The notes beneath the pieces are model-generated. The model did not search any database and was not told the DNA's origin. It worked only from the letters and a program-made list of their open reading frames with translations. 31,857 nt of DNA from Pseudovirgaria hyperparasitica (Eukaryota): NCBI GenBank assembly GCA_010093815.1, contig ML996573.1. The stretch is one strand, 5' to 3'. The translations under genes and the position numbers were made by a program. Positions 1,542-26,652 of this stretch are shown here, one piece after another; within the stretch, counting starts at the first letter, position 1; every line of letters starts with the position of its first letter.

Positions 1542-2070
1542 TATAATAAATTACTAGCTAGAGCCATAGAAGAATACATAGACTCTAGTATAAGTAGTAT
1601 AAGAAATAGTATAATACGTAGAAGAGGTGCCTATAATACGATAGATAACCTTAGATAATAACCTAAGGCCGAGATAGACATCTATAGAGAGAGCTAATTA
1701 TAGATACTTAGAATAGATATTCTAAGTAGTCTACCTAGTAATTAGAAATAGAATATTAGTATTCTAAGTAACGTACTAAATACTTAGAATAAGTATTCTA
1801 ATTAGAGGACCTTAGTAGAACTATATAGACTCTTTAGACCTAACCTCTAGAGATAGTTCTATGATAATTAATTTAAACTTATACTAATATAATTACTACT
1901 TTACTCGTCTACTAGCTAGTTACTATTTATACTCTATTAATACTTACTATAAACCTACTTATATCTCTCGGAGCCTTCTAAGTATCTTTATCTTTAGAAA
2001 AGCCGGAATACTCTATAGAATGAACTACTTTAGAGATAAGCCGTACTCTTATTAAGGAAGGTTTATTATA
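1542..2070 (+). repeat. 5' LTR of element A
   Basis: TATAATAAATTACTAGC...GGTTTATTATA (RIP form of TG...CA termini); colinear with 17603-18131 and, inverted, with 30913-31441. Confidence 0.96.
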
Positions 2071-2129
2071 GTTTAATTACTCGTCTTAGACTCTAAAGTA
2101 AGTATTTATACTATTTATTTAAACGTAAA

Positions 2130-3938
2130 ATAGTAAATAATAGATAATTCTTATCTTTATAAACTACCCTATAAGTACTAACTATAGAATAAGTTAGATA
2201 TCTTATTACTAAATTAGAGGAGTAAGTCGCGGAGCTCTAAAGAGAAAATATTAAACTTAGAAAAGCTAAAGAGAGCTTTAAAAGAAAAATTCTAGAACCT
2301 TTTAAAGGTAAGTAAAGCGAACTCTAAGGATTTCTAATATAGATTAGAATATACCTCTAGGCCTATTAAATTTAGGACCTAGAAGAATAAGTTATATTTA
2401 CCGCTAGACTACTAAAGGAAGATATACTTACATGGTTCGAGCTCTACTTAAGGGACTTTATAGAAAATAATCCGTAGAATTAATAGAATAATACTACTAA
2501 GGTCTTTAAACGCTTTAAAGAATTTAAGAAATATATTAAGATAACTTTTAGAGATATAGATAAATAAAGGATAGCTAAGAGATAGATCTAGTAAATAGTC
2601 TAGATAAAATCTACGTCTAACTACGCCTCTAAATTCTAATAAATCTCTAGTTAGCTAGGATAGGATAATAAACCCCTAATCCTCTAGTTCTATACTAGAT
2701 TATATAATAACATTAAGAACAAAATCTCTAGAGAGAGAGACTATTCTACTAACCTCTAGAAATATATTAAGCTTATAGTCTAGATTAATAACTAACTATA
2801 TAAGAGACGCTATAAGAAAAGAGGGAAGAAGGTCTTTTAACCTATACTTAAATAAGATATAAGGAAGGGCTATATTAATAAAGCCCTAAACTACTTATAT
2901 AAGAGATTCTATAACGGACCCGTATCTATAGAACTTAGCGCCTTATAGATAAAATAACTATCTAATAAAGAAAAGGAGTAACTAAAGAAGGAAGGTAAGT
3001 ATCTCTACTATAAGGAAAAGGGATACTATATACGCGAATACCTAAAAAATAAGAATAAGAAAAGTTAGATTAAAGACCCGGTACTAAGACGAGGGAACTT
3101 CACTATAGAAAAGAAAGAAGTACCTTATATAGCTATATTATAGACTAGTTATACTAATAACCTCTATTTTATATATAAGTTAGAAAAAGACGGTATAGAT
3201 TAGTATCTAAAGAAAAGAAATATCTTAATAGCTAGTAAATAACCCCTATTACTTTACGAAAAAGTAGAACTATAGAAATACTTAGAAGTAATAAGAAGAC
3301 CTAAACTAAGTAAAGAAATAGTATCTAAAGAAGTAATAATTAAAGGAAGTACTATAGAGGAGAATAGTAAGAAAGAAACCCTTACTATAGAAGAACTATA
3401 TAATAAGTTAATAATAATATAAGACCCTATTACTTACTATATTATCTATTACTATAGAAAGTATATAGATAAGAATAATAGAGACCCACCTAGAAGAGAC
3501 GTAGAAATCTAATTAGAAGATAACTAACTTATTTTAACCTACCACGAGGAACATAGTAAGACTTCCTAGGTTACTTATATCTATAATAACTATCTTCGCT
3601 ACCTCTATAAGAAGCGAACCTAGAAATAGTTTCTATAATAGTATTAAAATTAAGTAATTCTAAAAGCCTTTAGGGACGAAGATATATAATAGTATAAAAT
3701 AATTACTAAGAAAGCTAATAAAAACTACTTTATATTAAAACGGGTAGAAAATAAGATTTATCTAGAGAATTAATATATCTAATATCCGGACGTTACGTAC
3801 CGAACTTATTTAATATCTAAGGCTATTATATAGTATAATCTTTAAGTAGACTTAGATAAAATTAAGAAATAAGTTTAATCTATAATCTAACTTATATAAG
3901 AAACGGAATAAGAACTTAGTAAGCTACGAAAAAACTAG
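2130..3938 (+). pseudogene. gag: gag of element A (capsid, CCHC zinc knuckle, long C-terminal extension)
   Basis: De-RIPed frame reads PEPFKGKQSELQGFL...VIFAAGLLKGDALTWFEP; knuckle CLYCKEKGHYAREC at 3000-3041; ends AAA AAC TAG at 3930-3938; start inferred from ATA (ATG) at 2130. Confidence 0.85.
3929..3935 (+). promoter_or_regulatory. -1 ribosomal frameshift slippery heptamer A AAA AAC
   Basis: X XXY YYZ heptamer in the gag frame directly before the gag TAG; the pol protease motif lies in the -1 frame. Confidence 0.75.
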
Positions 3939-6459
3939 AAAGGCTAGATACCCTAAGAGAAATAGCTAAGCTAAAAAGAAAATCTCTCGTATCTATTAGT
4001 AGCTTAGATAATAAAATATAAATATCTCTTAAAATTTAGCTCTATTAAAAATACTCTATTAAAGTACTAATTAATAGCGGAGTATAGTCTAATTTTATCT
4101 CTCTAACTATAGTAGATAAACTAAAAATATCCTATAATAGTAAAGAAGAACTATATAAACTATCTACATTCAAAGGACTCAATATAGAATATACTAATAG
4201 AATAGTATACTTAGAAATAGAACCTCTAGATTTAGTCTTAATAGTAGAATACTAATAATTATAACTAGATATAGCGGAGCTAGAATAATATAACTTAATT
4301 CTAGGAATACTATAGCTCGAAGAAGTTAACTCTATAATTAACTAGAAAACTAAGAAAATTATACCCTAGGAAATATTAAGACCCTTAGAAACTATTAAAG
4401 AAGAAGTAGAGATTAATAAATCTATAAAGGCGCTAATAACCGGGAAGTCTATCTACTATATTTAGAAGCTTAATAATAAGTAAGGTAATATAAAGAGCGG
4501 ACCCTTATATAAGAAATATATAGTATAATAAAGTACGCCTATAGATAAATAGATTTAAAAAATAAACGACGTACTTATACTAAAGAAATACTACTAATAC
4601 TATATTATCTTTAAAGAAGAACTTAAGATAGAACTACTAAAGTATAGCCTATATAATTATATAATAATACTCTAACTAGAAATAGTATCTATATTTAAAA
4701 GTATATACTAACTTACTAAAAAATAACTAGAGATAACGTAATAATATATTAAGAAAATAGAAGTAAAGGGATATATCTAACTCTCTAAATTATCTATAGA
4801 ATATCTAATACTCTTTATACTAAAGAAAGATAGAAGCGAACGACCCTATATAGACTATTAATACTTAAATAATATTACTATTAAAAATAGATACCCTCTA
4901 CCCTAAATTAATAAATTATAGGACTAACTTATAGAAGCTTAGTACTTTACTATAATAGACTTATAAGAAGTCTATAACCTTATATATATAATAGAAGGAG
5001 ATAAATAGAAAATAGCTTTTTAGACTTAATACGGCTACTATAAATATCTAGTAATACTATTTAGACTAACTAATATACTAGCTATATTCTAAATACTAAT
5101 TAATAATATACTAAGAGAATACCTTAACTACTTTATAATAGTATACCTAGATAATATATTAATTTATTTAAGAAACCTATTAGAGTATAGAGAATATATA
5201 TATAAGATACTTTAGAAATTATAAATAGTAAATCTACTAGTAGAATTAAAGAAGAGTATCTTCTATATATAGAAAGTTATATTTTTAGAATTTAAAATTA
5301 TATCTAGAGAAATATAAATAGACCTAAAGAAGATTAAAGCTATTAAAAACTAGAAATAATCTAAGATAGTTAAGGAAATCTAAGGATTTACCGGATTTAA
5401 AAACTTTTATAGAAAATTTATATATAACTATTCTATAAAGACGGCCCTACTATATAAGCTTATAAAGAAAAATATAATATTTAAATAGAGACTAAAGTAA
5501 GAATAAGTATTTTAATAATTAAAAGAGTCTATTATAACTAAACCTATATTAAAGATATATTAAATAGGAAAACTCTATAAAGTTAAGATAGATATATTAG
5601 AATTTACTATTAGAGGGTAGTTAACCTAGATAGATAAATAAGGGAAAAGATATTCTATAGTATTTTACTCCCGAAAATTCTAAGGATTAGAAATAAATTA
5701 GCTAATCTATAAAAAAGAACTCTATACTATAATTAAGTATCTTAAGAAATAGAGAAGCTATCTCTACGGATTAGACTATATAGTAAAGGTATATACTAAC
5801 TATAAAAACCTAACTACCTTTACTATAATAAAGGAACTCCGAAAGAAATAAATTAGTTAGTATAAGCTTCTTATAGAGTTTAATATCTAAATTATATACT
5901 ATAAAGGATCCGAAAACGGAAGAGCTAATACCCTTAGCTAATAAGTAGAATATAAGCAAAAAGAACCTACTATAGAATAGACTATATTAGAAATTACTAA
6001 AGAAGGAAACCTTAAACTAATATAATACGTTATAGTAATATAGAAAGAATTTATATTTAAGAATTCTAAGGGAAGGAGTATAATCCTAAGGGACGAGGCC
6101 TATTATTTTATTAAAGAATTCTATAAAGATCCAATATATAGATATTAAGAAGAAATAAAAACTTATAAAAGATTTAAGAGATACTATATAACTTATAAGG
6201 AAAGATAAGTTATTAAGAAAGTTATATAGGACTATATTCTATATAGTAAAAGCTAATCTAATAGATATAAACTATATAGAGAACTTTAACCGATTCCCCT
6301 ACTATTATATACTTAGAAAATAATCTCTATAGACTTTATAATAGATCTACTACTCTTAAGAGAACTAGTTTTATAAGTATAGTATAATACTATACTAGTA
6401 GTAGTTAATAAACTTACGAAGTATACCTACTTTATACCCTATTAAAAGAATATAGATAT
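3929..6459 (+). pseudogene. pol: pol of element A, 5' part (protease, RT, RNase H, integrase N-terminus)
   Basis: Protease LI(D)SG at 4067-4081; RT YLD(D) at 5144-5155; RNase H VETDAS..AIGG ~5582 and NGRADALS ~5915; integrase HHCC ~6120-6245; cut by element B at 6459. Confidence 0.93.
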
Positions 6460-6609
6460 TGTTACAGCTATAGTAGTAGCACATACCATGTATAATCAAT
6501 GTAGGTAGTTGCGAACCGGTCGTTTGTATAAATACAACCGACTAGATGCGTATATAGAAAATAGTATACTTTATAACTAATATAACTTAACTTATTAATA
6601 ATCTTAATA
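6460..6609 (+). repeat. 5' LTR of element B
   Basis: Aligns without gaps to 15857-16006; I count 17 differences, all transitions. Confidence 0.96.
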
Positions 6610-6612
6610 AAG

Positions 6613-6625
6613 TGGTAGCTGAAAG
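6613..6625 (+). promoter_or_regulatory. Candidate tRNA primer-binding site of element B
   Basis: TGGTAGCTG begins 3 nt after the 5' LTR; TGG complements the tRNA CCA end; cognate tRNA not identified. Confidence 0.5.
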
Positions 6626-7017
6626 CTAGTACCTACTAGTTCGTATACTTCGAATACCAAGTCCTCTTTACTAGGCTATCTTAGTTAATATAATAATAAT
6701 AGAACGATCGCTAGTTTAAGCAACCTCCTCCTTACTATACTACCTATACCAACTACTTTATTATAGGCTAGTAAAACGTCCTCCTTCTAGTATACGGCAC
6801 GAGTAGGATAGACTTATTATATTACTATAAACTTAACTCTCTAGAGCTTAAGAACGCTCTATTTACCGGTTACGAAACCATATATAGATCGAACTAGGCA
6901 TCTACGACTCCGTCGCTTCCGTATCTTACTATTTAGCTTAAAGGTTTTCTGTCGTACACCGGACGCTAGCGATTTTATATTTTCTATACTCTTACTAGCC
7001 GCTTATAATAATAGCTT

Positions 7018-10000
7018 ATATTACTACTAGAGGACTTAGTTCTCCTAGGGCATTAACTATTTAGTTACGGATAAGTTAATCGATAGACGTTTAGAAATCT
7101 ACCGCTACTTAAGATAGTACTTAATTATCTTATTACTAACTATCTACCGCCCTCTACTCTAGAACGTTCCTCACGAAGTAGAAGGCTAGCTACCGAGCCT
7201 TTTCTACCGTAGTAGTTAATAAATCGCCTAGCGTTATAAGAGGCGTATAACTCGTTCCTAAATAACCCGTTAATTCGAGCTTAGTACCCTTTAACTACTA
7301 GGCTCCCTAGGGCTTTCTTAAGCTCGTTAGACTCGGTTAATTATATAGTAAGCTCTAGTATAGACGCTACTACATCCGACCGCCCTAAACGTGCTAGCAC
7401 TTTAGTAGAATATACTATACTACGTTAGGTAGACATAGACGCTAGTAATAGTAGCACGCTAGCTAGGGCCCTAACGACCGATAATAGGGACTTTACGGTA
7501 AGGTAGTAAGCTATAATTATAGCTATAATCTAGTAGGCTCTTACTTAGCGGGCGGGTAGTTCACGAGATAACGACTAAAACCCGATGGGTAGTAGTAAAA
7601 ACCTACCGTTTAACGATAACGAAGACGGTTAAGGGTTTAGAATATAAGAAATTAGATTCTTCTAACCCGACTTAGATTATAGCTTCGGAGACAGAGATAT
7701 TATTTTTACCGGTTAGGACATATATATATATAGCGTATATATTTTCCTTAACTAGATTAAAGACGCTACTACGGCTAGAGAAACCGAAACCATTAAGTTA
7801 AAAATCTCTTAGTATCTACGAGGATGTGCCCTCGAGTAGTTTATATTAGGTTTATCTAATCTCGAGAAGGAGGCGCTCCGTTACTTACCTAGTTTAGACG
7901 CCTAGACTACGGCCTTAATTAAGTAGTTTAAGTAGCCGTTATCCGACGCTCTATCGTCCCTTATAACGCGAAGATATACTCTCTAATAGGCCCGCTTCTA
8001 AACTAATATCGCTTTATACGTATATACTATAGCTTACGACTATAGTACCGTATAATTATTAGACCCTTCTAGCTAAAACGCTTAGACGTTCGCATAGAAC
8101 GGCATTAATATTCTCCTTTACTAGGGTCTACCTCCACTAATAGAATCCACGTCTCTAGCCTAATTTATATAAACTCTATAGGTAAAACGCAAAGAATAGT
8201 ACTAACTCGTCTACTATTATCTCGGGGGCGCGTAGCGTAATACTTTAAGTCGATTTACTTAATAAGGAAGAGAAGATAGTTAATATAACGGCTCTTATTA
8301 CTATAACTTACCTTAACCGTTTAGTAACTCTTAAGACTAGGGCTAGTCTAATAGCCGTTATCTTATAACCGATCGACCCGATCGACGCTATAACTTGTAC
8401 TAGCCCCGCCCTCTATAATAGTTCTAATAAGGGTCGGGAGGTTTAGATAAAGGCGGTCGAAAGGCATTAGCTAACGTATATTAGCTACTAGCTATAACCG
8501 GCGCTTCTATAGATTATCCTACTAGTCCTAGAACGACTAATAAGCCCTATACCGGCTAGCCTTAGTCTCTTAGTAATAATAGATAATTTACCTAACCGCT
8601 ACGACTATTCCACTAGGCGTATAATGTTTAGGAAGAATTATATAACCTAGATGTTAAAGATACTTACTATATAGGGGTCGAAGAAGCTTTCTTCTACCTT
8701 AGGCTAACTAATACGGATACTATTAAACTCGTGTAGTTTAGTAACGAAACCGGCCTCGCTAGCCTTAACCCGCCGCCTAGCGACATTAATAAGAGCCTAC
8801 CTTCGTAGTTCGTAGCGTGCTAAGTAACTAATATACATCCGGTATACTAGATCTAATATAACGTTTATAACGAGGTATTTCCGTCGCGAAATAAGCTATT
8901 CAAGTACCTTAAGGATAGAAAGCACCTTAAGACGACGGTAAAGGCTAAGGTTCCCCTATGTAATCGTATAGTCCTAAGATTAGACGTCGTATATTATAAT
9001 ATCTAGGGTAACGTAGTACTATTATTAGTTAGTAACCTACTAGGCACCGGCCGAGCGTATAAAGAATCGTACTATATCTAAGTTAAGGCCTCGCTTAGTC
9101 TTAACGGCCCCATCGAACGCATCTATCTAGATATAGAAAGCGTGGTAATACTAATTAACCAAGCCTTTCTTAAATAGTAGGACCCTAATACCTAAATACT
9201 TATCTAACTAGCTATTTCCATTTAAGGAGTAGAGGGAGTTAAGCCTATAAAGTCGACCGAGTTCGCGGTTATTACGCTATTCCTCCTAGGCCGAACGTCC
9301 GACGGTTTAACCGCTATAATTATAAAAGTAACATGCGAAGTATATATCCTCGACCGTCTATAGGTAGGTCTCCTTCTTAGAACCGACGTTATAGTACCTT
9401 AGAAGATAGATATCTATATAAGTACGTATATAATAACTATCGGCATATATAGCGGGATTACTATACTAACCTTTACTACTACTATTCGACTAGTAGTACG
9501 CTAGGGAGTAACTATTTTATAGTATACCGTCCTCTAGCTACGAATACTCACGCTAGTCCCGATTATAATCCGTCGCTAGTATAAATTAGTCATAGGAGAT
9601 TACGTGTTTACCCTAACGTATATAAGTATAAGGCTTAGTTAGGGCGGAGGCGTCTATATATATCTTACTAACTAAAATATAGCGTATATATTTATCGTAA
9701 ACCGTGGATTTAGATCGGTACGTATAAATAAAAATATAAGACTCGGTGTATTAACGGACGAAATGGACGCCCTCCACGCATTTTAGGCTAAAGTAGTCTC
9801 TTTAGATAGTATAGAGGGATTATCTATAAAGCTTACTTAGCTTAATAAAGTTAAATAGATAGGCGCGTTTAGTATAAAAATTTACGCTAAAGACAAAGCG
9901 ACTACCTAGATATTTAATAAGATCGTCCGAAGTTACGCTATCTTATTTTATAATACTAGACTTATAAATATCCTAGAGAAAGACTAGATACATATCCCCC

Positions 10001-12960
10001 TAGTAAGTAACTAGAAAACGGCTAGTATAAAGCTAAGCTACCGCATCTACTCGTTAGGAGCAAGTGGTAAGGCTATTATTAATAAGATATATAATAAGCT
10101 TTATATATAAGGTCGCATAGAATACCCGATATAGATAATACCGTTCGGTTTCCTAATATTCGTCGTATACTCTATAGTAAAGTTACTCACCTAGATATCG
10201 CGTAAGGACGCCGGTCGGGTAGTTAAAGATATAAGAGACCTAAACAAAATTAGTATTAAGAACTCCTATCTATTACTACTCTAGGGTAATATTATCTAAT
10301 ATACGGCCGGAAAGAAGTTCATATCCGTCGTTAATATAGCTAGCTTCTTCTACTAGTGGCCGGTCGCTAAGGAAGACTATTATAAACTAACGTTTATATC
10401 GTACTAGGGCTAGGAGTAGTTAAACGTTATTCTAATGGGTTTCTATAACTCTCTACCGTACGTATAGAGGTAGATCGATAAGATCTTACACGACGCTAGA
10501 TATAAGGCGTTCACCATGGCGTATATTAACGATATTCCCGTATTTAGTAAGGAACTTAACGAGTATCTTAACTACCTTTAGCGGGTGTTTACTATACTAT
10601 AAGTAAGAAACCTAACGCTTAAAGGTAAAAAGTATTACTTAGGATATCTATCTATTACCCTACTCGGTTAGAAGGTCGACGCTTATAGACTCTCTACTAT
10701 AGCTAAGAAATTAGTAGCTATACGTAATCTCTAGTATCCCGAAACGCTTGATAAGCTCGAATACTACCTTAGACTAACCGGATGGTTATAGTAATACGTG
10801 CTATATTACGCTTAGCTCGCCTAGGACCTATAGGCTAAGAAAACGCGTCTTCTTAAAGAAGCACCTTTAGCGGGATATACACGTATAGCGTACTATAAAC
10901 GAACAAAGATCGCTCGAATAGACTAGCTATTAGCGTTATAGAAGGGTATTTAGGCCGCCTTCGCGGACGAGACTAAGCTTGTCTACTATAATCTAAAACG
11001 ACGGCTCTACGTAGACATTAACGTATTAAAGCACGGCTTTAGAGTCTTCGCTTACTATATTAAAGGGGAAGTAGACGATATTATAAAGATTAGATAATTA
11101 GATATCGAGCCTATTCTATACCTTAGTAAAGAACTCTCTATAGCCGAGTCGCGGTACTAGCTAATAGAGCTAGAAGTGGTAGCGGTCGTGTAGACTATAC
11201 GCTAAATACGCTATATAGTCGACGGTTTAGACTAACTAACGATTGTTATTACCGACTATATAGCCACGCCGAGTATCGTTCGATAGATAGTACTTATAAG
11301 CTTATTAGTTAATAAGCTAAATCTCCAACTAGTACGGGCCTTATAGTATCTATTCTAGTTTAATCTAGAGCTTAAATATAGGCTAGATAAAGAATACGTA
11401 GTACCTAACGCTCTTTCTCGGCTCCGTTAGATCTATAATAGAGTCTAGCTAAGAGACTTAGACGTCCTTAAGAAGCTCTCGACGTTTAACATTATAATAG
11501 TTAAAATCGACCTAAAATTTATAAGGTAGCTAGCTAACGCATATAATAACGATAAGCACTAGGCAAGTATAAAAGCTATAGTACTAGACTAGGATAACGA
11601 TGTTACTCGACTAATTTCTTTTTAATTTACTAATAGTATAATTTATTACATCAATTAGCTTAACGGATGATATCGGATCTACGTGCTAAAATCGCTTAAT
11701 AGAGATATCTTCGCTTAATTCCATAATAAAAGCGCTTATATGGGATTTTTCCGAGCATACGATCGAATTCGCGTGGGCTACTTTATTTATCGGCTCGTAA
11801 AGCGCCTAAAGCACTATATTTAGTACTATCCTACCTATAAAACTTACTAGATATAAAGATATACGCCGTATAGCGAATTGAAGCTAGTCTAGTTACCGCT
11901 AATACCATTTTATACGGTTATAATAGACTTTATTATTAGACTACTAATATAGAATAGGCTTAACGCGCTACTTACTATAACGGATAAGTTTACTAAGCGA
12001 ATCTATCTCGTTCTAGGCCGGAATAACTAGACCGCCGCGTAATAGGTAACTGCGTTTAGGAGGAGTATACTACTAGAATAGAGAGTTCTAGCCGTAATTA
12101 TTTGCGATAGGGACCGAAAATTCCTATCGTCATTTTAGAAAGGAATTTTCGAGGGTATTAGTACTAAAATCCTAGCATTAACCGCTTATTATAAATAGAG
12201 TAACGGTTAAAGCGAACGTATAAACCAAACGGTAAAGATCGCCCTATGTTTTCTTATTTTAATATCGCTAGCCATAGGCTGGACAATCTATATCCTATTA
12301 GTCTAGCGGCTTATAAATAATTTACTAAACGCCTTAATATAAAAATCTCTAAATAAGATGGTATACGGCTTCTAACTATCTAAAGGCACCCTATTTAAGG
12401 AGACTAGTTCGATAGAAGCGAATAATTACGCCTAAAAGCGTAATATAAACCGGAAAGAGACGTTAGACGCGCTAGTATTCGCCTAGACGCGTATGAAGGA
12501 GCGTTTCGATAGGCGCTATACGTCTCTACTAGACCTCGCTTCTAGTAACTAGGTCTATATTCGACTATATAAAGGGTATAAGATTCTAGGCGCTTATTAT
12601 AAGCTTGGCTAATAACGAGTCGGACCGGTACTAATTAAACGCGTGGTAGGCCGTTAGGCGTACGAACTAGAGCTACCGGAGATATAGAAAATATACCTAG
12701 TAATATCTATCGAATAGTTAGAACCATTTCTAAAGGATCTCGACTATTTCGACCGTAGAGAAGATATACACCCACTTACTATTATAAATGAGTAGATGGC
12801 GATAGCTATCTATAATCGGCGCCATGTTCGAATCGGGTGTAATTATAAACTAACCGTTAAATACTAGGTAACGGTATATAGCGATGGTCTAGAATTCGGT
12901 TAGTAGATACGGCGAAGCATGCTTCTATTAGACTTAGTCGAAGAATACGACCTTAGATAA
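7018..12960 (+). pseudogene. gag-pol: Single-frame gag-pol of element B (gag, C2H2 finger, protease, RT, RNase H, integrase, chromo-like domain)
   Basis: All motifs in one frame: gag EIGFFQPDL and CLRGxALEWF (~7650-7845); C2H2 at 8857-8925; protease CLD(TG)S 9124-9141; RT YI(D)D 10522-10533; RNase H YVDIDAS ~11008 and VPDALSR ~11401; integrase HHCC ~11722-11838 plus DDE core; KLGQQRVGP 12601; chromo-like ~12790-12957. Start codon uncertain. Confidence 0.9.
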
Positions 12961-15813
12961 GTCTATAGGAATAGTCTACTAGGAGCCTAGCTAGGTCGAC
13001 GACTACTTAAAGTTATAATATCTATCCGCCCCTAGCCATTATAGATAGGGAGCCGTTAATATCTATTATAACGAGCGGCGTTATAATATATATATTTACT
13101 AAGCATTCTACGAATATATAACTATTAAGTACTTCCTTACGTTATTCGCTTAAAGATCGGTACTAGACCTAGATCTATTAACTAAAGACGACTACCATAG
13201 TTAAGCCGACCGCATAGCCTACTATTCGTAGTTACTAACCTATAAATATTCTATAATATCGACTAATTACTATATATAACTAGCTTTATCCTTACTAGAC
13301 CTAGTATATTAATTTAGTAGGCTCGTAATAGTTACACTCAATCTAAACTAACCGATATCCTCCTACGCCTACGTCTAAAGGTAGGCGAAAAGCACCACTA
13401 GTGGCCTATAGAAAAGATTTAGGCGCGAGCAAACATCGACCTAGCTAACCGACTATCCTATATAGCTCTACACGACGTGATAGCGAACTAGGTAGATTCT
13501 AAGAGTTTTCCTAGCTTGTTAAAAGCTTTCCTACTAATTCTTCTAGAATACATGGTAATAGGATACTCTTCGTCGTCGGCCCTACCCGTATAGGTCTCCG
13601 GTAATAGACCGGTAGTAGGTAATTTCTCTACGACTAAATAACGGCACCTATTAAAATACGATTTACAGCCGTTTTATATAGATTATCCTATTAATATTAC
13701 GGAGGACCGTATAACTTAGCCGCCTATGAACGTCTAGTAGTCCGACCAAGTAAAGTTACTAATTATTATAGTAATAGAGTAACGGATTATAAGGAAGGGC
13801 GAGGTCGGTATCTAATAGCCGGCCGTATTCTTAAAAGAAGGATGGTTTTAGGACGGTTGTCTCCCGCATGGAGCCCCTAGCGTTTTAAATAATAAGGTCG
13901 CGATTATCTTTAATCGATTTATACTCGGTAGAGTAGCGATATTACCACTATATTATTAGTAGATTCTAGAAAAGACTCGTTCTAAGCCCTAGGTAATTAA
14001 AGATAAGCCATTTATAGCGAATAAAACCGACCATTATACTTAGGCGGTACCCTTAGATATCGATCTAATATATAGGCACGAAGATGACGACGGCGGCATT
14101 TTAGCTAAGCGACTATTAAAGATCGTAAGCGCCGTATATCCGACTATAAAAAGTCTAGTAGACGATCTAATTTTAGCCCGATCGCAACGAGTAGGTTATG
14201 TATATACTACGTTACTTATATTACTAACCACTGCCGATAATTCGGACTTTAGCTCGCCGTATAGTTAGTTAAGTAGGTAGCGAATAAACTCGGGCAGCTT
14301 AGTACTAAACGTTAGTAATCTATCGCTATTCACGCCTAAATCGAGTCGGGTAATTAATTTTAAAACTAGCACGTAAAGATTTAACCTAATCACGATTCTA
14401 TAGAAAGATTAGCGGGATAATAAGGAAGTGACTATATTAGATATCTACGCGTATAACCTTAACGTAGTTAAAAGAATCGTCGACTAGTTAACCTAGGCCG
14501 ACGCCTATCTTACCGATGTCTACTAATAACTATACGATATAACCTCGTCTATTAAGGTAAATATAGTCGACTAGAGAACCATGGTAGCTATCTAGATATA
14601 ATTTTTAACGTCCGTTCTAATAGCTACTAGGAATAACCTACGCGTAATACTTCTTAAGTAAGCTAAAACTCTTTATAAACTTATCGGCAACGAAGGTATT
14701 AACTTAGTTAAAAATAGGCATAAGCGACCTATATTCGAGTATACTATTTTAATAACTAAAGACTCCTTCGAAGTTAAGAGTAACCTAGATATATATATTA
14801 CGTTATTCTAGGACTTTCGGTAGAAAGTAAGTACCGCTAAAAAGATATAGAGCCTTGATAGAGTAGTTATAGGAAGTCTAGTTTTTAAAAAACCGACTAT
14901 TAAGAGAGACCTCTATATTATCTAACCTAAGCTTATAAAGAAACGAGTCGTTATCTCATCCGATAAGGAAGAAATTAATAGTAATTTTACTATAGTATAG
15001 CCCCGCCTAGTTATAAAGACGACCTTAGCCGCCTTAAAAACGTTATCTTAGTTATTTTAATGAAAGCCTAAGTAGCCTAATTCGGTCGACCGCCTAGGTC
15101 TCCTACCTAGCCTAAGTAAGTTAGCTCGTCCTCTAGCCGACCGTAGAGAACTAGGACATTACTCGTACTAAATGGGTAAGCTAATTAAGCGACCAGGGCC
15201 TCTAGGGGAGGTAGTTAACCTCCTCGAGCCTATAAAGTTAATTTACGAGTACGGTAAATACGCTATAAGGTTATTTAATAACGAAATTAGCGAGTATATA
15301 TAGGAGTACCTAAACCGTACCCACGACGCTAAATATAAGTTTTATACTAAGGAGTTAAGACTAAAGTAAATGGTTAAATACTACTAGAACGTCTACTACT
15401 ATTATAGCTTTAGACTCGAAGACGCTACCACAACTACTTATGGTTACGAGTGGTACGAACCTTACCTTACCAAAATACTACTAAATAGACCGTTATATTA
15501 TAAGACGTGCTAAAAGGTTATAAAGCTAGTTTTTCTAGATAATAACTCTAATAGCGTATAAGGTAAGCCCGTAATAGCTTTACACGAACTAACTAGCGTA
15601 CTACCTACTAGCGAAGTATAGTAAGTCGACTAGGACGATAATAAAGACGTTAAGGTTACTAAGCTACTAGCCAAGCGACGAGGTCGCCCTAAGGGGACTA
15701 TAAAGCACGTCGCGCCCGCTAAGGAACTCCCTAGCGTCGGTTTAGCCGTAGGTCGACCGTGCCGTGGTGTCTATAAAGATATAAACCCGCGCCTAGCCAA
15801 GCGTCGCGCGTAA
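12961..15813 (+). pseudogene. Extra ~950-codon coding region of element B, in frame with pol; C-terminal RING-H2-like finger and AT-hooks
   Basis: Protein-like reading continues in the pol frame with stops only of the RIP-derivable kind; Cys/His-derivable codons at RING-H2 spacing 15394-15510; intact KRRGRPK at 15673-15693; TAA at 15811-15813 shortly before the 3' LTR. Confidence 0.75.
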
Positions 15814-15856
15814 AGCTACTAAGGGTAGTAGTAGGTTTTCTTAAATTCGGGCACCT

Positions 15857-16006
15857 TATTATAGCTATAGTAGTAGTATATACTATGTATAATTAATATA
15901 GGTAGTTACGAACCGGTCGTTTATATAAATATAACCGACCGGATACGTATATAGAAAATGGTATACTTTATAACCAATACAACTTAACTTGTTAATAATC
16001 TTAATA
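15857..16006 (+). repeat. 3' LTR of element B
   Basis: Direct repeat of 6460-6609 followed by TSD GATAT. Confidence 0.96.
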
Positions 16007-16011
16007 GATAT

Positions 16012-16977
16012 AGAAGAAATAGTCTATGTATTCCTACGAGTAGTTATAGTAAACTATAGTTTATCTAATAGTATTATATCTAATAGAGATAAGCTCTTTA
16101 TATTAAATTTTTAGAAAAGTCTAGTACGATAGCTTAGAACGAACCACTAACTATTAATAGTCTACTACCTATAGATAGATAGATAAATAGAGATTCTAAA
16201 TAGAATACTAGAATAATACCTCTAATACTATATTAATAAATAATAAGATAATTAGGTAGAACTACTACTACTAGCTTAATTCGTCTATAATAGTACGATA
16301 ACTTTAATAACTAAAACCTTACCGTTCTATGCGAACTACGGATTTAACCCTATAGCTAGCTATAATTATAAACTAGAATAGTCTATACTAAAAGTAAAGA
16401 TTAAGGCGGAATAGCTATATAAGCTATACTCGGAGCTATAGACTAAACTTTCTTTTATAAATAAAAGAATAATAAAATATATAAATTAAAAGAGAATAAA
16501 GAGACCATCCCTAAGGGGGGGAGACCTAGTATTCCTTATATAGAAAAATATTAAGATATAATAACTAAATAGTAAACTAGACTTTAAAAAGATTAGACCT
16601 TTCTAAATAAAATAAAAAATTTTAGAAGAGAATTATAAACTATCTTTACCTTAGAATATAAGGATATACCTAGTATTTTATATCTTATTACTAGAACTAG
16701 CACCACGTAATATAAAAATTAAAACTAATATTAAAGCTATAGATAAGGAATTCGAAGTTAAAAGGATTCTAGAATCTAGAATTAGTAATAAAATACTAGA
16801 ATATCTAATTAAGTAGAAGGGCTATAGACACGAATTAAATACTTAGAGACCTAGAGAATATTTAATAAACTACTAGTAACTATTATAGAAGTTCTATTAA
16901 ATAAACCTAGATTCGCCTAGTCCTCTATACTAAGCTAAGAATTATTAAAATCTAAGGGAGGATTCGGAGCCTTCTTA
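16012..16977 (+). pseudogene. pol: pol of element A, 3' part (integrase core, GPY/F, chromodomain)
   Basis: SDRDKLFTSxFW; HPQTDGQTE-like; KLDFKKIGPF ~16575; chromodomain EFEVERIL..EYLIKWKGY..ENTWEP-like at 16748-16900; end approximate. Confidence 0.92.
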
Positions 16978-17493
16978 ATAGTAACTCTCTATTATTATTT
17001 AAGTTACTCCTCCTTCTTCTTAAGATCTATTACTAATAGATTCTAATAAAGTATATTATTTTAACGACGCTCTAATAGCTTCTACTATTTCTCTAGGTAC
17101 TCTAGATACGTAAAGACGGTCTAAGCGTTCTACTAAGCTTTTCGCTAAGTAGCGGCTATATATTCTTTCTCTAACTTAAGACGAGCCTTTCTAGAATAAA
17201 TCTTCTTATCTAGAAATATTACTTACTAGCCCTAATAAAAGGAAAGAGAACTTATAAGATAATTTACTTAAAGCCTTAATCCTATACTTACTTACCGAGT
17301 AACTCTAATAAATATACTCTAAATACGTATCGGACTTTATAAATGCCACCCTATAAGTTAAACTATATTTCTTATAGAATAAGTAAGGGAAATATATCTT
17401 ATTACCCTTATAATTAATTAAAATAGATAAAGTAACTCTCTATTTTACTAGATTAGATTTAGAAGACTTAACTAATTTTATAACTCTAGATAT
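16851..17493 (-). pseudogene. Antisense ORF in the 3' region of element A: Zn2Cys6-like cluster plus coiled coil, one predicted intron (17267-17210)
   Basis: De-RIPed CSFCKKHGLTCRVAFTKSDxCSECIRQSRSVSEC (C-x2-C-x6-C-x9-C-x2-C-x9-C) at 17385-17284; a 58-nt GT..AG intron joins it in frame to KARLESEKE..FARLERLEKQQELLERR; conserved in the second copy. Confidence 0.7.
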
Positions 17494-17589
17494 AACGGAA
17501 GAAAAAGAGGAAGGGCTCCTTACCAAAGAAAGTTAGGATAACCTTCTACTTATAAGTAACTATAGAAGTACTTCGGGACGAAGTACCTT

Positions 17590-17602
17590 AGAAGGGGTAT
17601 TA
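17590..17602 (+). promoter_or_regulatory. Polypurine tract of element A
   Basis: AGAAGGGG(TATTA) immediately 5' of the 3' LTR; same tract, inverted, at 31442-31454. Confidence 0.75.
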
Positions 17603-18131
17603 TTTAATAAATTACTAGCTAGAGCTATAGAAGAATACGTAGACGCTAGTATAAGTAGTATAAGAAATAGTATAACACGTAGAAGAGGTGCCTATAATAT
17701 AATAGATAACCTTAGATAATAATCTAAGGCTAAGATAGACACCTATAGGGAGAGCTAATTATAGGTACTTAGAATAGGTATTCTAAGTAGTCTATCTAGT
17801 AATTAGAAATAGAATATTAGTATTCTAAGTAATGTACTAAATACTTAGAATAAGTATTCTAATTAGAGGACCTTAGTAGAACTATATAGACCCTTTAGAC
17901 CCGACCTCTAGAGATAGTTCTATAGTAATTAATTTAAACTTATACTAATATAATTACTACTTTACTCGCCTACTAGCTAGTTACTATTTATACCCTATTA
18001 ATACTTATTATAAACCTACTTACACCTCTCGGAGCCTTCTAAGTACTTTTACCTTTAGGAAAGCCGGGATACTCTATAGAACGGACTACTTTAGAGATAA
18101 GCCGCACCCTCGTTAAGGAAGGTTTATTATA
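17603..18131 (+). repeat. 3' LTR of element A
   Basis: 529-bp repeat of 1542-2070 followed by TSD CCTAC. Confidence 0.96.
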
Positions 18132-26310: not shown

Positions 26311-26405
26311 TAGAGTAGATAGAGTAGATAGAGTAGATAGAGTAGATAGAGTAGATAGAGTAGATAGAGTAGATAGAGTAGATAGAGTAGATAGAGTAGA
26401 TAGAG
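26311..26405. repeat. Perfect 9-bp tandem repeat (TAGAGTAGA)x10.5
   Basis: Directly visible; abuts the gap, so the true array is probably longer. Confidence 0.95.
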
Positions 26406-26518
26406 AAGCTAAAATACTAGATACTATTTATTCTATAAGAGTTATTAGTATATAGTAAATAAGTAGTACTAGTAAGCTAATTAGTATTAAGAAAATAACT
26501 AGTACTAATTATCCCGTT

Positions 26519-26652
26519 AGTATAAACGGTACATTCGGTATAAACGGGACGTTTAGTATAACTAGTACGTTTGGTACTAATGGGACGTTTAGTATAACTA
26601 GTACATTCGGTATAAACGGGACGTTCGATATAAGCGGGATACTTAGTATAAA
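26519..26652. repeat. 18-bp tandem repeat, about 7.4 copies (consensus GGTATAAACGGGACGTTT)
   Basis: Units AGTATAAACGGTACATTC / GGTATAAACGGGACGTTT / AGTATAACTAGTACGTTT / GGTACTAATGGGACGTTT / AGTATAACTAGTACATTC / GGTATAAACGGGACGTTC / GATATAAGCGGGATACTT. Confidence 0.9.

Follow-up and report, generated by a model that had tools for sequence, protein, structure and literature searches.

The window analysed here is a stretch of 31,857 nucleotides of contig ML996573.1, from the Pseudovirgaria hyperparasitica assembly GCA_010093815.1. The whole of it is AT-rich and marked by repeat-induced point mutation (RIP), with TpA/ApT ratios of 1.6-1.9 and (CpA+TpG)/(ApC+GpT) ratios of 0.06-0.19. Within it lies a long terminal repeat (LTR) retrotransposon, element B (6460..16006), a chromovirus whose interior runs on for about 850 codons from the chromodomain to the 3' LTR. 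Near the 3' end of this extension, a Tyr-rich patch (15394..15510) keeps the spacing of a RING cross-brace, and it is this patch, probably the remnant of a RING-type zinc finger, that is considered in what follows. The features of element B and of its borders are these:

6455..6459, plus strand: left copy of the target-site duplication (TSD) GATAT, read directly; the same five bases stand 3' of the 3' LTR
6460..6609, plus strand: 5' LTR, 150 nt, from repeat search, alignment and reading of its ends
6610..12957, plus strand: gag-pol of a Ty3/gypsy chromovirus, a single frame full of TAA and TAG, from translation, Pfam and relatives
6612..6625, plus strand: candidate primer-binding site TGGTAGCTGAAAGC, 2-3 nt 3' of the 5' LTR, proposed only from its resemblance to a tRNA primer-binding site
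~10231..10674, plus strand: RVT_1, from Pfam
11107..11262, plus strand: RT_RNaseH, from Pfam
11689..11835, plus strand: Integrase_H2C2, from Pfam, its finger aligned to relatives
12553..12729, plus strand: SH3_Tf2-1, from Pfam
~12787..12957, plus strand: chromodomain, from alignment with relatives
12958..15393, plus strand: 3' extension (the tail), ~810 codons in the pol frame and of no known family, from Pfam and stop density
13882..14124 (within 13585..14150), plus strand: stretch similar to protein P0002; no other part of the tail has a relative
15244..15390, plus strand: second, weaker Tyr/His-rich patch, 8 Tyr/Cys/His in 40, from the density scan
15394..15510, plus strand: Tyr-rich patch spaced like a RING cross-brace, with TAY at seven positions and TGC intact at the eighth, from codon reading, pattern and shuffle tests
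15673..15696, plus strand: AT-hook-like KRRGRPKG, read in the frame of the patch
15751..15768, plus strand: second GRP core, GRPCRG (GRP at 15751..15759), read in the frame of the patch
15811..15813, plus strand: TAA after KRRA, candidate for the true end of the frame
15822..15838, plus strand: candidate polypurine tract, purine-rich, read upstream of the 3' LTR
15857..16006, plus strand: 3' LTR, from repeat search, alignment and reading of its ends
16007..16011, plus strand: right copy of the TSD GATAT, read directly

Repeat search and alignment indicate that element B is bounded by 150-nt LTRs which start with TG, end with TA and are 89% identical to each other, the whole being flanked by a perfect 5-bp duplication of the target. 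Taking into account the order in which Pfam places RVT_1, RT_RNaseH, Integrase_H2C2 and SH3_Tf2-1, together with the aligned chromodomain, element B is therefore a Ty3/gypsy chromovirus. Its closest pol relatives in a collection of 5.8 billion proteins (P0003-P0006; E 8e-131 to 8e-123, 31-35% identity) also contain the chromodomain family PF00385. The interior of the element is a single frame, 3082 codons long, in which 232 stops occur (230 TAA/TAG and 2 TGA), and no further copy of the family is found elsewhere in the window.

The element is a RIP-mutated repeat, as reflected in an excess of TpA (TpA/ApT 1.87), a depletion of CpA and TpG ((CpA+TpG)/(ApC+GpT) 0.19) and the kind of differences between copies. 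Thus, in contigs from two public runs of one sample, C>T changes occur at 214 places and G>A at 218, against 71 for A>G, 68 for T>C and 29 for all transversions. The family is repeated, and the present copy is among the less mutated ones. All 30 bins from the integrase through the tail are covered by these contigs at similar summed depth, a measure that is not a copy number and comes from hundreds of contigs too short to prove linkage between integrase and tail.

The patch shares its frame with the gag-pol of element B and translates as YYYYSFRLEDATTTTYGYEWYEPYLTKILLNRPLYYKTC followed directly by a stop, the TAA at 15511. The codons of the eight putative ligands are TAC at 15394, TAT at 15403, TAT at 15439, TAC at 15445, TAC at 15454, TAC at 15463, TAT at 15499 and TGC at 15508, separated by gaps of 2, 11, 1, 2, 2, 11 and 2 residues. 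Direct reading thus confirms the initial annotation as regards the TAY codons, seven in number, the TGC left intact and the gaps between them. Tyr and Cys make up 14 of the 39 residues, compared with 8.2% for Tyr, Cys and His across the element frame, a density with a binomial probability of 1.2e-6 per position and about 0.004 over the whole frame. In a scan of 40-residue windows, the patch ties with the region of the integrase zinc finger as the densest in Tyr/Cys/His of element B, with 11 of 40 in each. The weaker patch immediately upstream (15244..15390) may once have been another Cys/His module, in which case the zinc-binding region would have been larger than the patch itself.

Reading these tyrosines as former ligands presupposes that RIP has converted Cys (TGY) and His (CAY) codons to TAY, and the frame of element B does contain 216 TAY codons compared with 10 TGY and 26 CAY. 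The premise could be calibrated inside the element, by means of the alignment columns in which at least three quarters of the un-mutated relatives P0003-P0006 agree. In such columns, a conserved His has become Tyr in element B in 19 of 22 cases and a conserved Cys in 5 of 10, the other five Cys columns looking misaligned, while stops replace a conserved Gln in 18 of 21 and a conserved Trp in 8 of 14. Seen from the side of element B, 65 Tyr residues stand in calibrated columns; the relatives have Tyr at 23 of these, His at 19, Cys at 5 and Phe at 8, so that the share of former His and Cys is 24/65. The HHCC finger of the integrase offers the same picture, since the relatives' H..H....C..C is aligned with H..Y....Y..Y in element B. 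Taken together, the calibrated His and Cys columns and the reading of the integrase finger make the premise, on which the initial annotation was built, a sound one.

A separate observation concerns the stretch 8830..8910 (residues ~742-770 of P0001), in the gag-pol, where the C-x2-C-x12-H finger of the relatives (CQGC...FKH in P0005) is found as Y-x2-Y-x12-Y. The comparison was made by eye, MAFFT having misplaced the first pair, and it is a further case within the element of zinc ligands turned into Tyr.

The spacing was compared with a general RING consensus, C-x2-C-x(9-39)-C-x(1-3)-H-x(2-3)-(C/H)-x2-C-x(4-48)-C-x2-C, and with a compact version of it (loops of 9-16 and 8-16, core x1-x2-x2), in both cases with Tyr as a wildcard. 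All eight positions of the patch, occupied by seven Tyr and one Cys, satisfy the general consensus, and its core, Y-x-Y-x2-Y-x2-Y, is what RIP would be expected to leave of C-x-H-x2-(C/H)-x2-C. In the coding frame of the element, the general consensus is matched only at the patch, and it arises in 1.2% of 2000 residue shuffles of that frame; the compact pattern occurs a single time across the six frames of the window and in none of the 2000 shuffles. When only the 39 residues of the patch were shuffled (20000 times), the general consensus was recovered in 0.13% of cases and the compact one in 0.005%, values that rise to 1.1% and 0.1%, respectively, when a context of 52 residues is shuffled. 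Nine spacing patterns were compared with the patch, and all eight positions are accommodated by the RING cross-brace alone. The PHD pattern (C4HC3; C-x2-C-x(8-21)-C-x(2-4)-C-x(4-5)-H-x2-C-x(12-46)-C-x2-C) has no local fit even with Tyr as a wildcard, and the same holds for the RINGv, LIM, Zn2Cys6, GATA and CCHC spacings. A four-position C2H2 pattern fits the patch locally once, and it does so in 55% of shuffles too.

The initial annotation had gone further and assigned the finger to the RING-H2 class. The cross-brace spacing supports the RING part of this assignment; the H2 part is not singled out by it. The codons of the fourth and fifth ligands (15445 and 15454) are both TAC, a codon that RIP produces from CAC as well as from TGC, and because the fifth ligand may derive from either His or Cys, RING-H2 and RING-HC (C3HC4) look the same here and are, as far as the codons tell, equally possible. 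As for the first loop, a length of 11 residues is no less typical for C3HC4 fingers than for RING-H2. Typical RING fingers also have a Gly after the third ligand, an aromatic residue before the fifth and a hydrophobic one after the sixth.

The tail that leads to the patch is coding-like in the pol frame, in which stops appear at 6.6 per 100 codons, as compared with 11-12 in the other two forward frames; frame -1, in antisense, comes close to this value, with 7.0. Counts of TGA were discarded as a marker of frame, TGA being itself a target of RIP. The first 300 nt past the chromodomain are rich in stops (11 per 100 codons in the pol frame), and therefore a separate downstream reading frame in the same phase is possible. 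No Pfam family is matched by the tail in any of six frames at E up to 10, nor is any PDB sequence. A phmmer search of 1.84 billion representative proteins gave a single match, to residues 300-380 of the tail (E 5.9e-8, 44% identity): P0002 (XP_033599784.1), a hypothetical protein of 234 residues from Pseudovirgaria hyperparasitica. P0002 aligns in the patch's own frame, and the stops of element B sit where it has Trp or Gln, as RIP predicts. It is possible that this gene model, too, is a fragment of some decayed element; P0002 has no Pfam family and no usable neighbours in the ESM Atlas. When the tail was compared by BLASTP with the rest of element B and with the retrieved proteins, P0002 was again the only match.

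Downstream of the patch, the same frame contains two AT-hook-like motifs. KRRGRPKG has the GRP core and the basic flanks of an AT-hook and would, at the level of the motif, qualify as one; in GRPCRG, other copies have T>C at 15760, a change after which the codon following GRP would encode Arg. The relative P0004 also ends in KRKRGRPSTK, downstream of its chromodomain, so that a basic AT-hook end looks like a trait of the family. The stop at 15511 (TAA) may originally have been a CAA and, with the AT-hook-like motifs lying in frame behind it, the finger would be followed by some 100 residues before the true C-terminus, the frame perhaps ending at the TAA that follows KRRA. Thus, the placement of the finger at the end of element B in the initial annotation is correct in that it lies near the 3' end and in the coding frame, and needs amending in that two AT-hook-like motifs come after it, which means that the protein probably went on beyond the finger.

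Judging from sequence, we favour with moderate confidence the view that the patch is a RIP relic of a RING-type zinc finger, belonging to a C-terminal module of the chromovirus made up of the chromodomain, a region of ~700 residues, the RING and the AT-hooks. The tail lies within the LTR-bounded, TSD-flanked unit. The ancestral finger would have had the form C-x2-C-x11-C-x-H-x2-(H or C)-x2-C-x11-C-x2-C, RING-H2 or RING-HC, and RIP would have turned TGY or CAY into TAY at seven of its eight metal ligands, with only the Cys codon TGC at 15508 surviving. It would have stood between the integrase chromodomain and the two AT-hook-like motifs, either as an extension of Pol or encoded by a separate, later reading frame in phase with it. 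In an active ancestor, this C-terminal module may have tethered the integration complex to AT-rich heterochromatin, and the RING may have recruited a ubiquitin-loaded E2, marking chromatin, host-defence proteins or proteins of the element itself; a ubiquitin-ligase activity of the putative RING is something we only infer. It is a possible but doubtful extension of this scheme that the family encoded a RING E3 ubiquitin ligase of its own, together with chromodomain and AT-hooks, which ubiquitinated chromatin or silencing factors of the host where the element integrated, or tuned the turnover of the element's own proteins. The present copy is inert, with 232 in-frame stops and Tyr at seven of its eight putative ligand codons.

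Several results weigh against a RING origin of the patch, and part of them would be accounted for if it were simply a truly Tyr-rich, or low-complexity, decayed stretch in which the spacing arose by coincidence and was picked out by eye. With Tyr as a wildcard, the six frames of the window contain 34 overlapping matches to the general consensus, at 19 loci, and therefore the loose motif alone is no evidence. The pattern definitions were made after the patch had been seen, which weakens the above figures somewhat, and the YYYY and YY runs in the patch widen the choice of ligands. With 23 of the 65 calibrated Tyr residues genuine, any single putative ligand could be a real Tyr. Nor is there support from profiles or homologues: the patch peptide as it stands (41 residues) gives no Pfam family, RING included, at E up to 10, a result expected if the ligands have been mutated; a search of PDB sequences returned no RING but one chance match to a lipoprotein (E 0.53), and the ESM Atlas yielded nothing for the peptide. 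The protein libraries yielded no intact homologue of the patch, the sole match to the tail, P0002, stopping short of it. A metagenome scan with the alignment of the tail and P0002 was likewise empty, as were the viral and prokaryote collections. The public-run contigs gave no less-mutated copy of the patch either, none of the 40 variant places listed, out of 639, falling within 15394..15510. The only metagenome match to a degenerate pattern of the finger core, locus L001, was rejected as a chance match in non-coding-looking DNA. Coincidence is nevertheless judged quite improbable, in view of a compact pattern which is unique in the window, absent from 2000 frame shuffles and found in just 0.005-0.1% of local ones (0.13-1.1% for the general consensus), and of a density of Tyr and Cys equalled in element B only by a proven zinc finger, that of the integrase.

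It could also be argued that the patch did bind zinc without being a RING E3, as two small fingers or as a RING-like, non-catalytic adaptor for proteins or chromatin, the part that PHD fingers and chromodomains play in other elements. The Tyr/His-rich stretch just upstream, which leaves room for a larger domain, the local C2H2 fit (for what a pattern arising in over half of the shuffles is worth) and the presence nearby of a chromodomain and AT-hooks, which are binding modules and not enzymes, all point that way. This alternative is rather improbable as well, given that the eight positions fit the cross-brace together with its diagnostic C-x-H-x2-(C/H)-x2-C core, and that the PHD, RINGv, LIM, GATA, Zn2Cys6 and CCHC spacings do not fit. 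A further explanation, which partly overlaps the other two, takes tail and finger together as passenger DNA, a piece captured from a host gene or a nested insertion of older date, which was spread along with the family and had no role in the life cycle of the element. Such an origin would agree with the fact that the four closest pol relatives (P0003-P0006) lack a tail of this kind, ending 10-90 residues past the chromodomain, and that no RING Pfam domain is present in any of the 10 pol matches listed. It would also agree with the annotation of the sole relative of the tail as a host hypothetical protein, which is alone in its cluster and has no longer or similar-length relatives, with the stop-rich first 300 nt past the chromodomain and with the lack of similarity between the tail and the rest of element B. 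Against this stand the maintenance of the pol frame, with the lowest stop density, over ~2.3 kb, the in-frame AT-hook-like motifs that follow, resembling the end of P0004, and the coverage of the tail by contigs at a level like that of the integrase, even if summed depth cannot prove that the two are linked. Passenger DNA is regarded as unlikely.

Among known systems, element B compares closely with chromoviruses of the Tf1/Tf2 type, which have the same order of reverse transcriptase, RNase H, integrase finger, SH3_Tf2-1 and chromodomain, short LTRs and a 5-bp TSD; element B differs from them in its ~850 extra codons, with a putative RING and AT-hooks past the chromodomain. With RING E3 ligases (RING-HC, C3HC4; RING-H2, C3H2C3) the patch would share the eight-position spacing, provided that its tyrosines are former Cys or His. 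It differs from them in having Tyr at 7 of 8 ligands, in matching no profile, in residing in a retrotransposon instead of a cellular gene and in being known here from sequence alone. The LTR retrotransposon REM1 of Chlamydomonas combines a PHD finger with a chromodomain, and in this case the difference lies in the finger, the spacing of the patch not fitting a PHD.

Ty3/gypsy elements of orchids are described as carrying an open reading frame for an AlkB-type demethylase, and it is said to be rare for such domains to become fixed in LTR retrotransposons (PMC9289625). Like element B, these elements would have their extra domain 3' of pol; the type of domain differs, and element B is a fossil killed by RIP. 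A RING has also been joined to a recombinase of transposon origin in RAG1, in which an N-terminal RING ubiquitin ligase accompanies a Transib-type enzyme, according to PMC10799480. RAG1, however, is a domesticated host gene derived from a DNA transposon, whereas element B is an LTR retrotransposon with its putative RING at the C-terminal side. In the full-text literature, including PMC10799480, PMC6101501 and PMC9289625, no RING finger was found in the pol of an LTR retrotransposon, supplements and subscription journals lying outside this literature, so that it is no proof of absence. The word RING does not appear in PMC3248453 or in PMC8775202.

The accessory domains of LTR retrotransposons usually reveal how the element chooses its target or how it fights against host control. 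If the proposal is true, the combination of RING, chromodomain and AT-hooks would point to the use of ubiquitin signals in heterochromatin by a fungal chromovirus, and would constitute a retrotransposon counterpart of the RING E3 ligases of viruses. Element B is a chromovirus set apart by an unusual accessory module, of which only the RIP-mutated fossil is left. As regards method, zinc fingers may be recognised in DNA destroyed by RIP as clusters of Tyr with kept spacing, a reading for which the integrase finger of the same element can serve as calibration. That the present copy is dead limits the value of the case.

Element B was inserted in the integrase region of a second and more heavily RIPed chromovirus, element A, the two halves of which flank it:

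1544..17961: element A, its halves on either side of element B
4817..5863: reverse transcriptase and RNase H of element A
16520..16696: SH3 of element A
16751..16894: Chromo of element A
starts at ~1544 and ~17605: repeat pair of element A

Element A does not have a long tail past its chromodomain. The position of element B inside another RIPed chromovirus fits a preference for heterochromatin. Such a preference of chromoviruses was reportedly described by Gao et al. in 2008.

Elsewhere in the window, a perfect tandem array of 9 nt in 10.6 copies (26311..26405) adjoins degenerate arrays of 18/36 nt (26444..26639), and the arrays sit within a region of strong GC skew (0.33).

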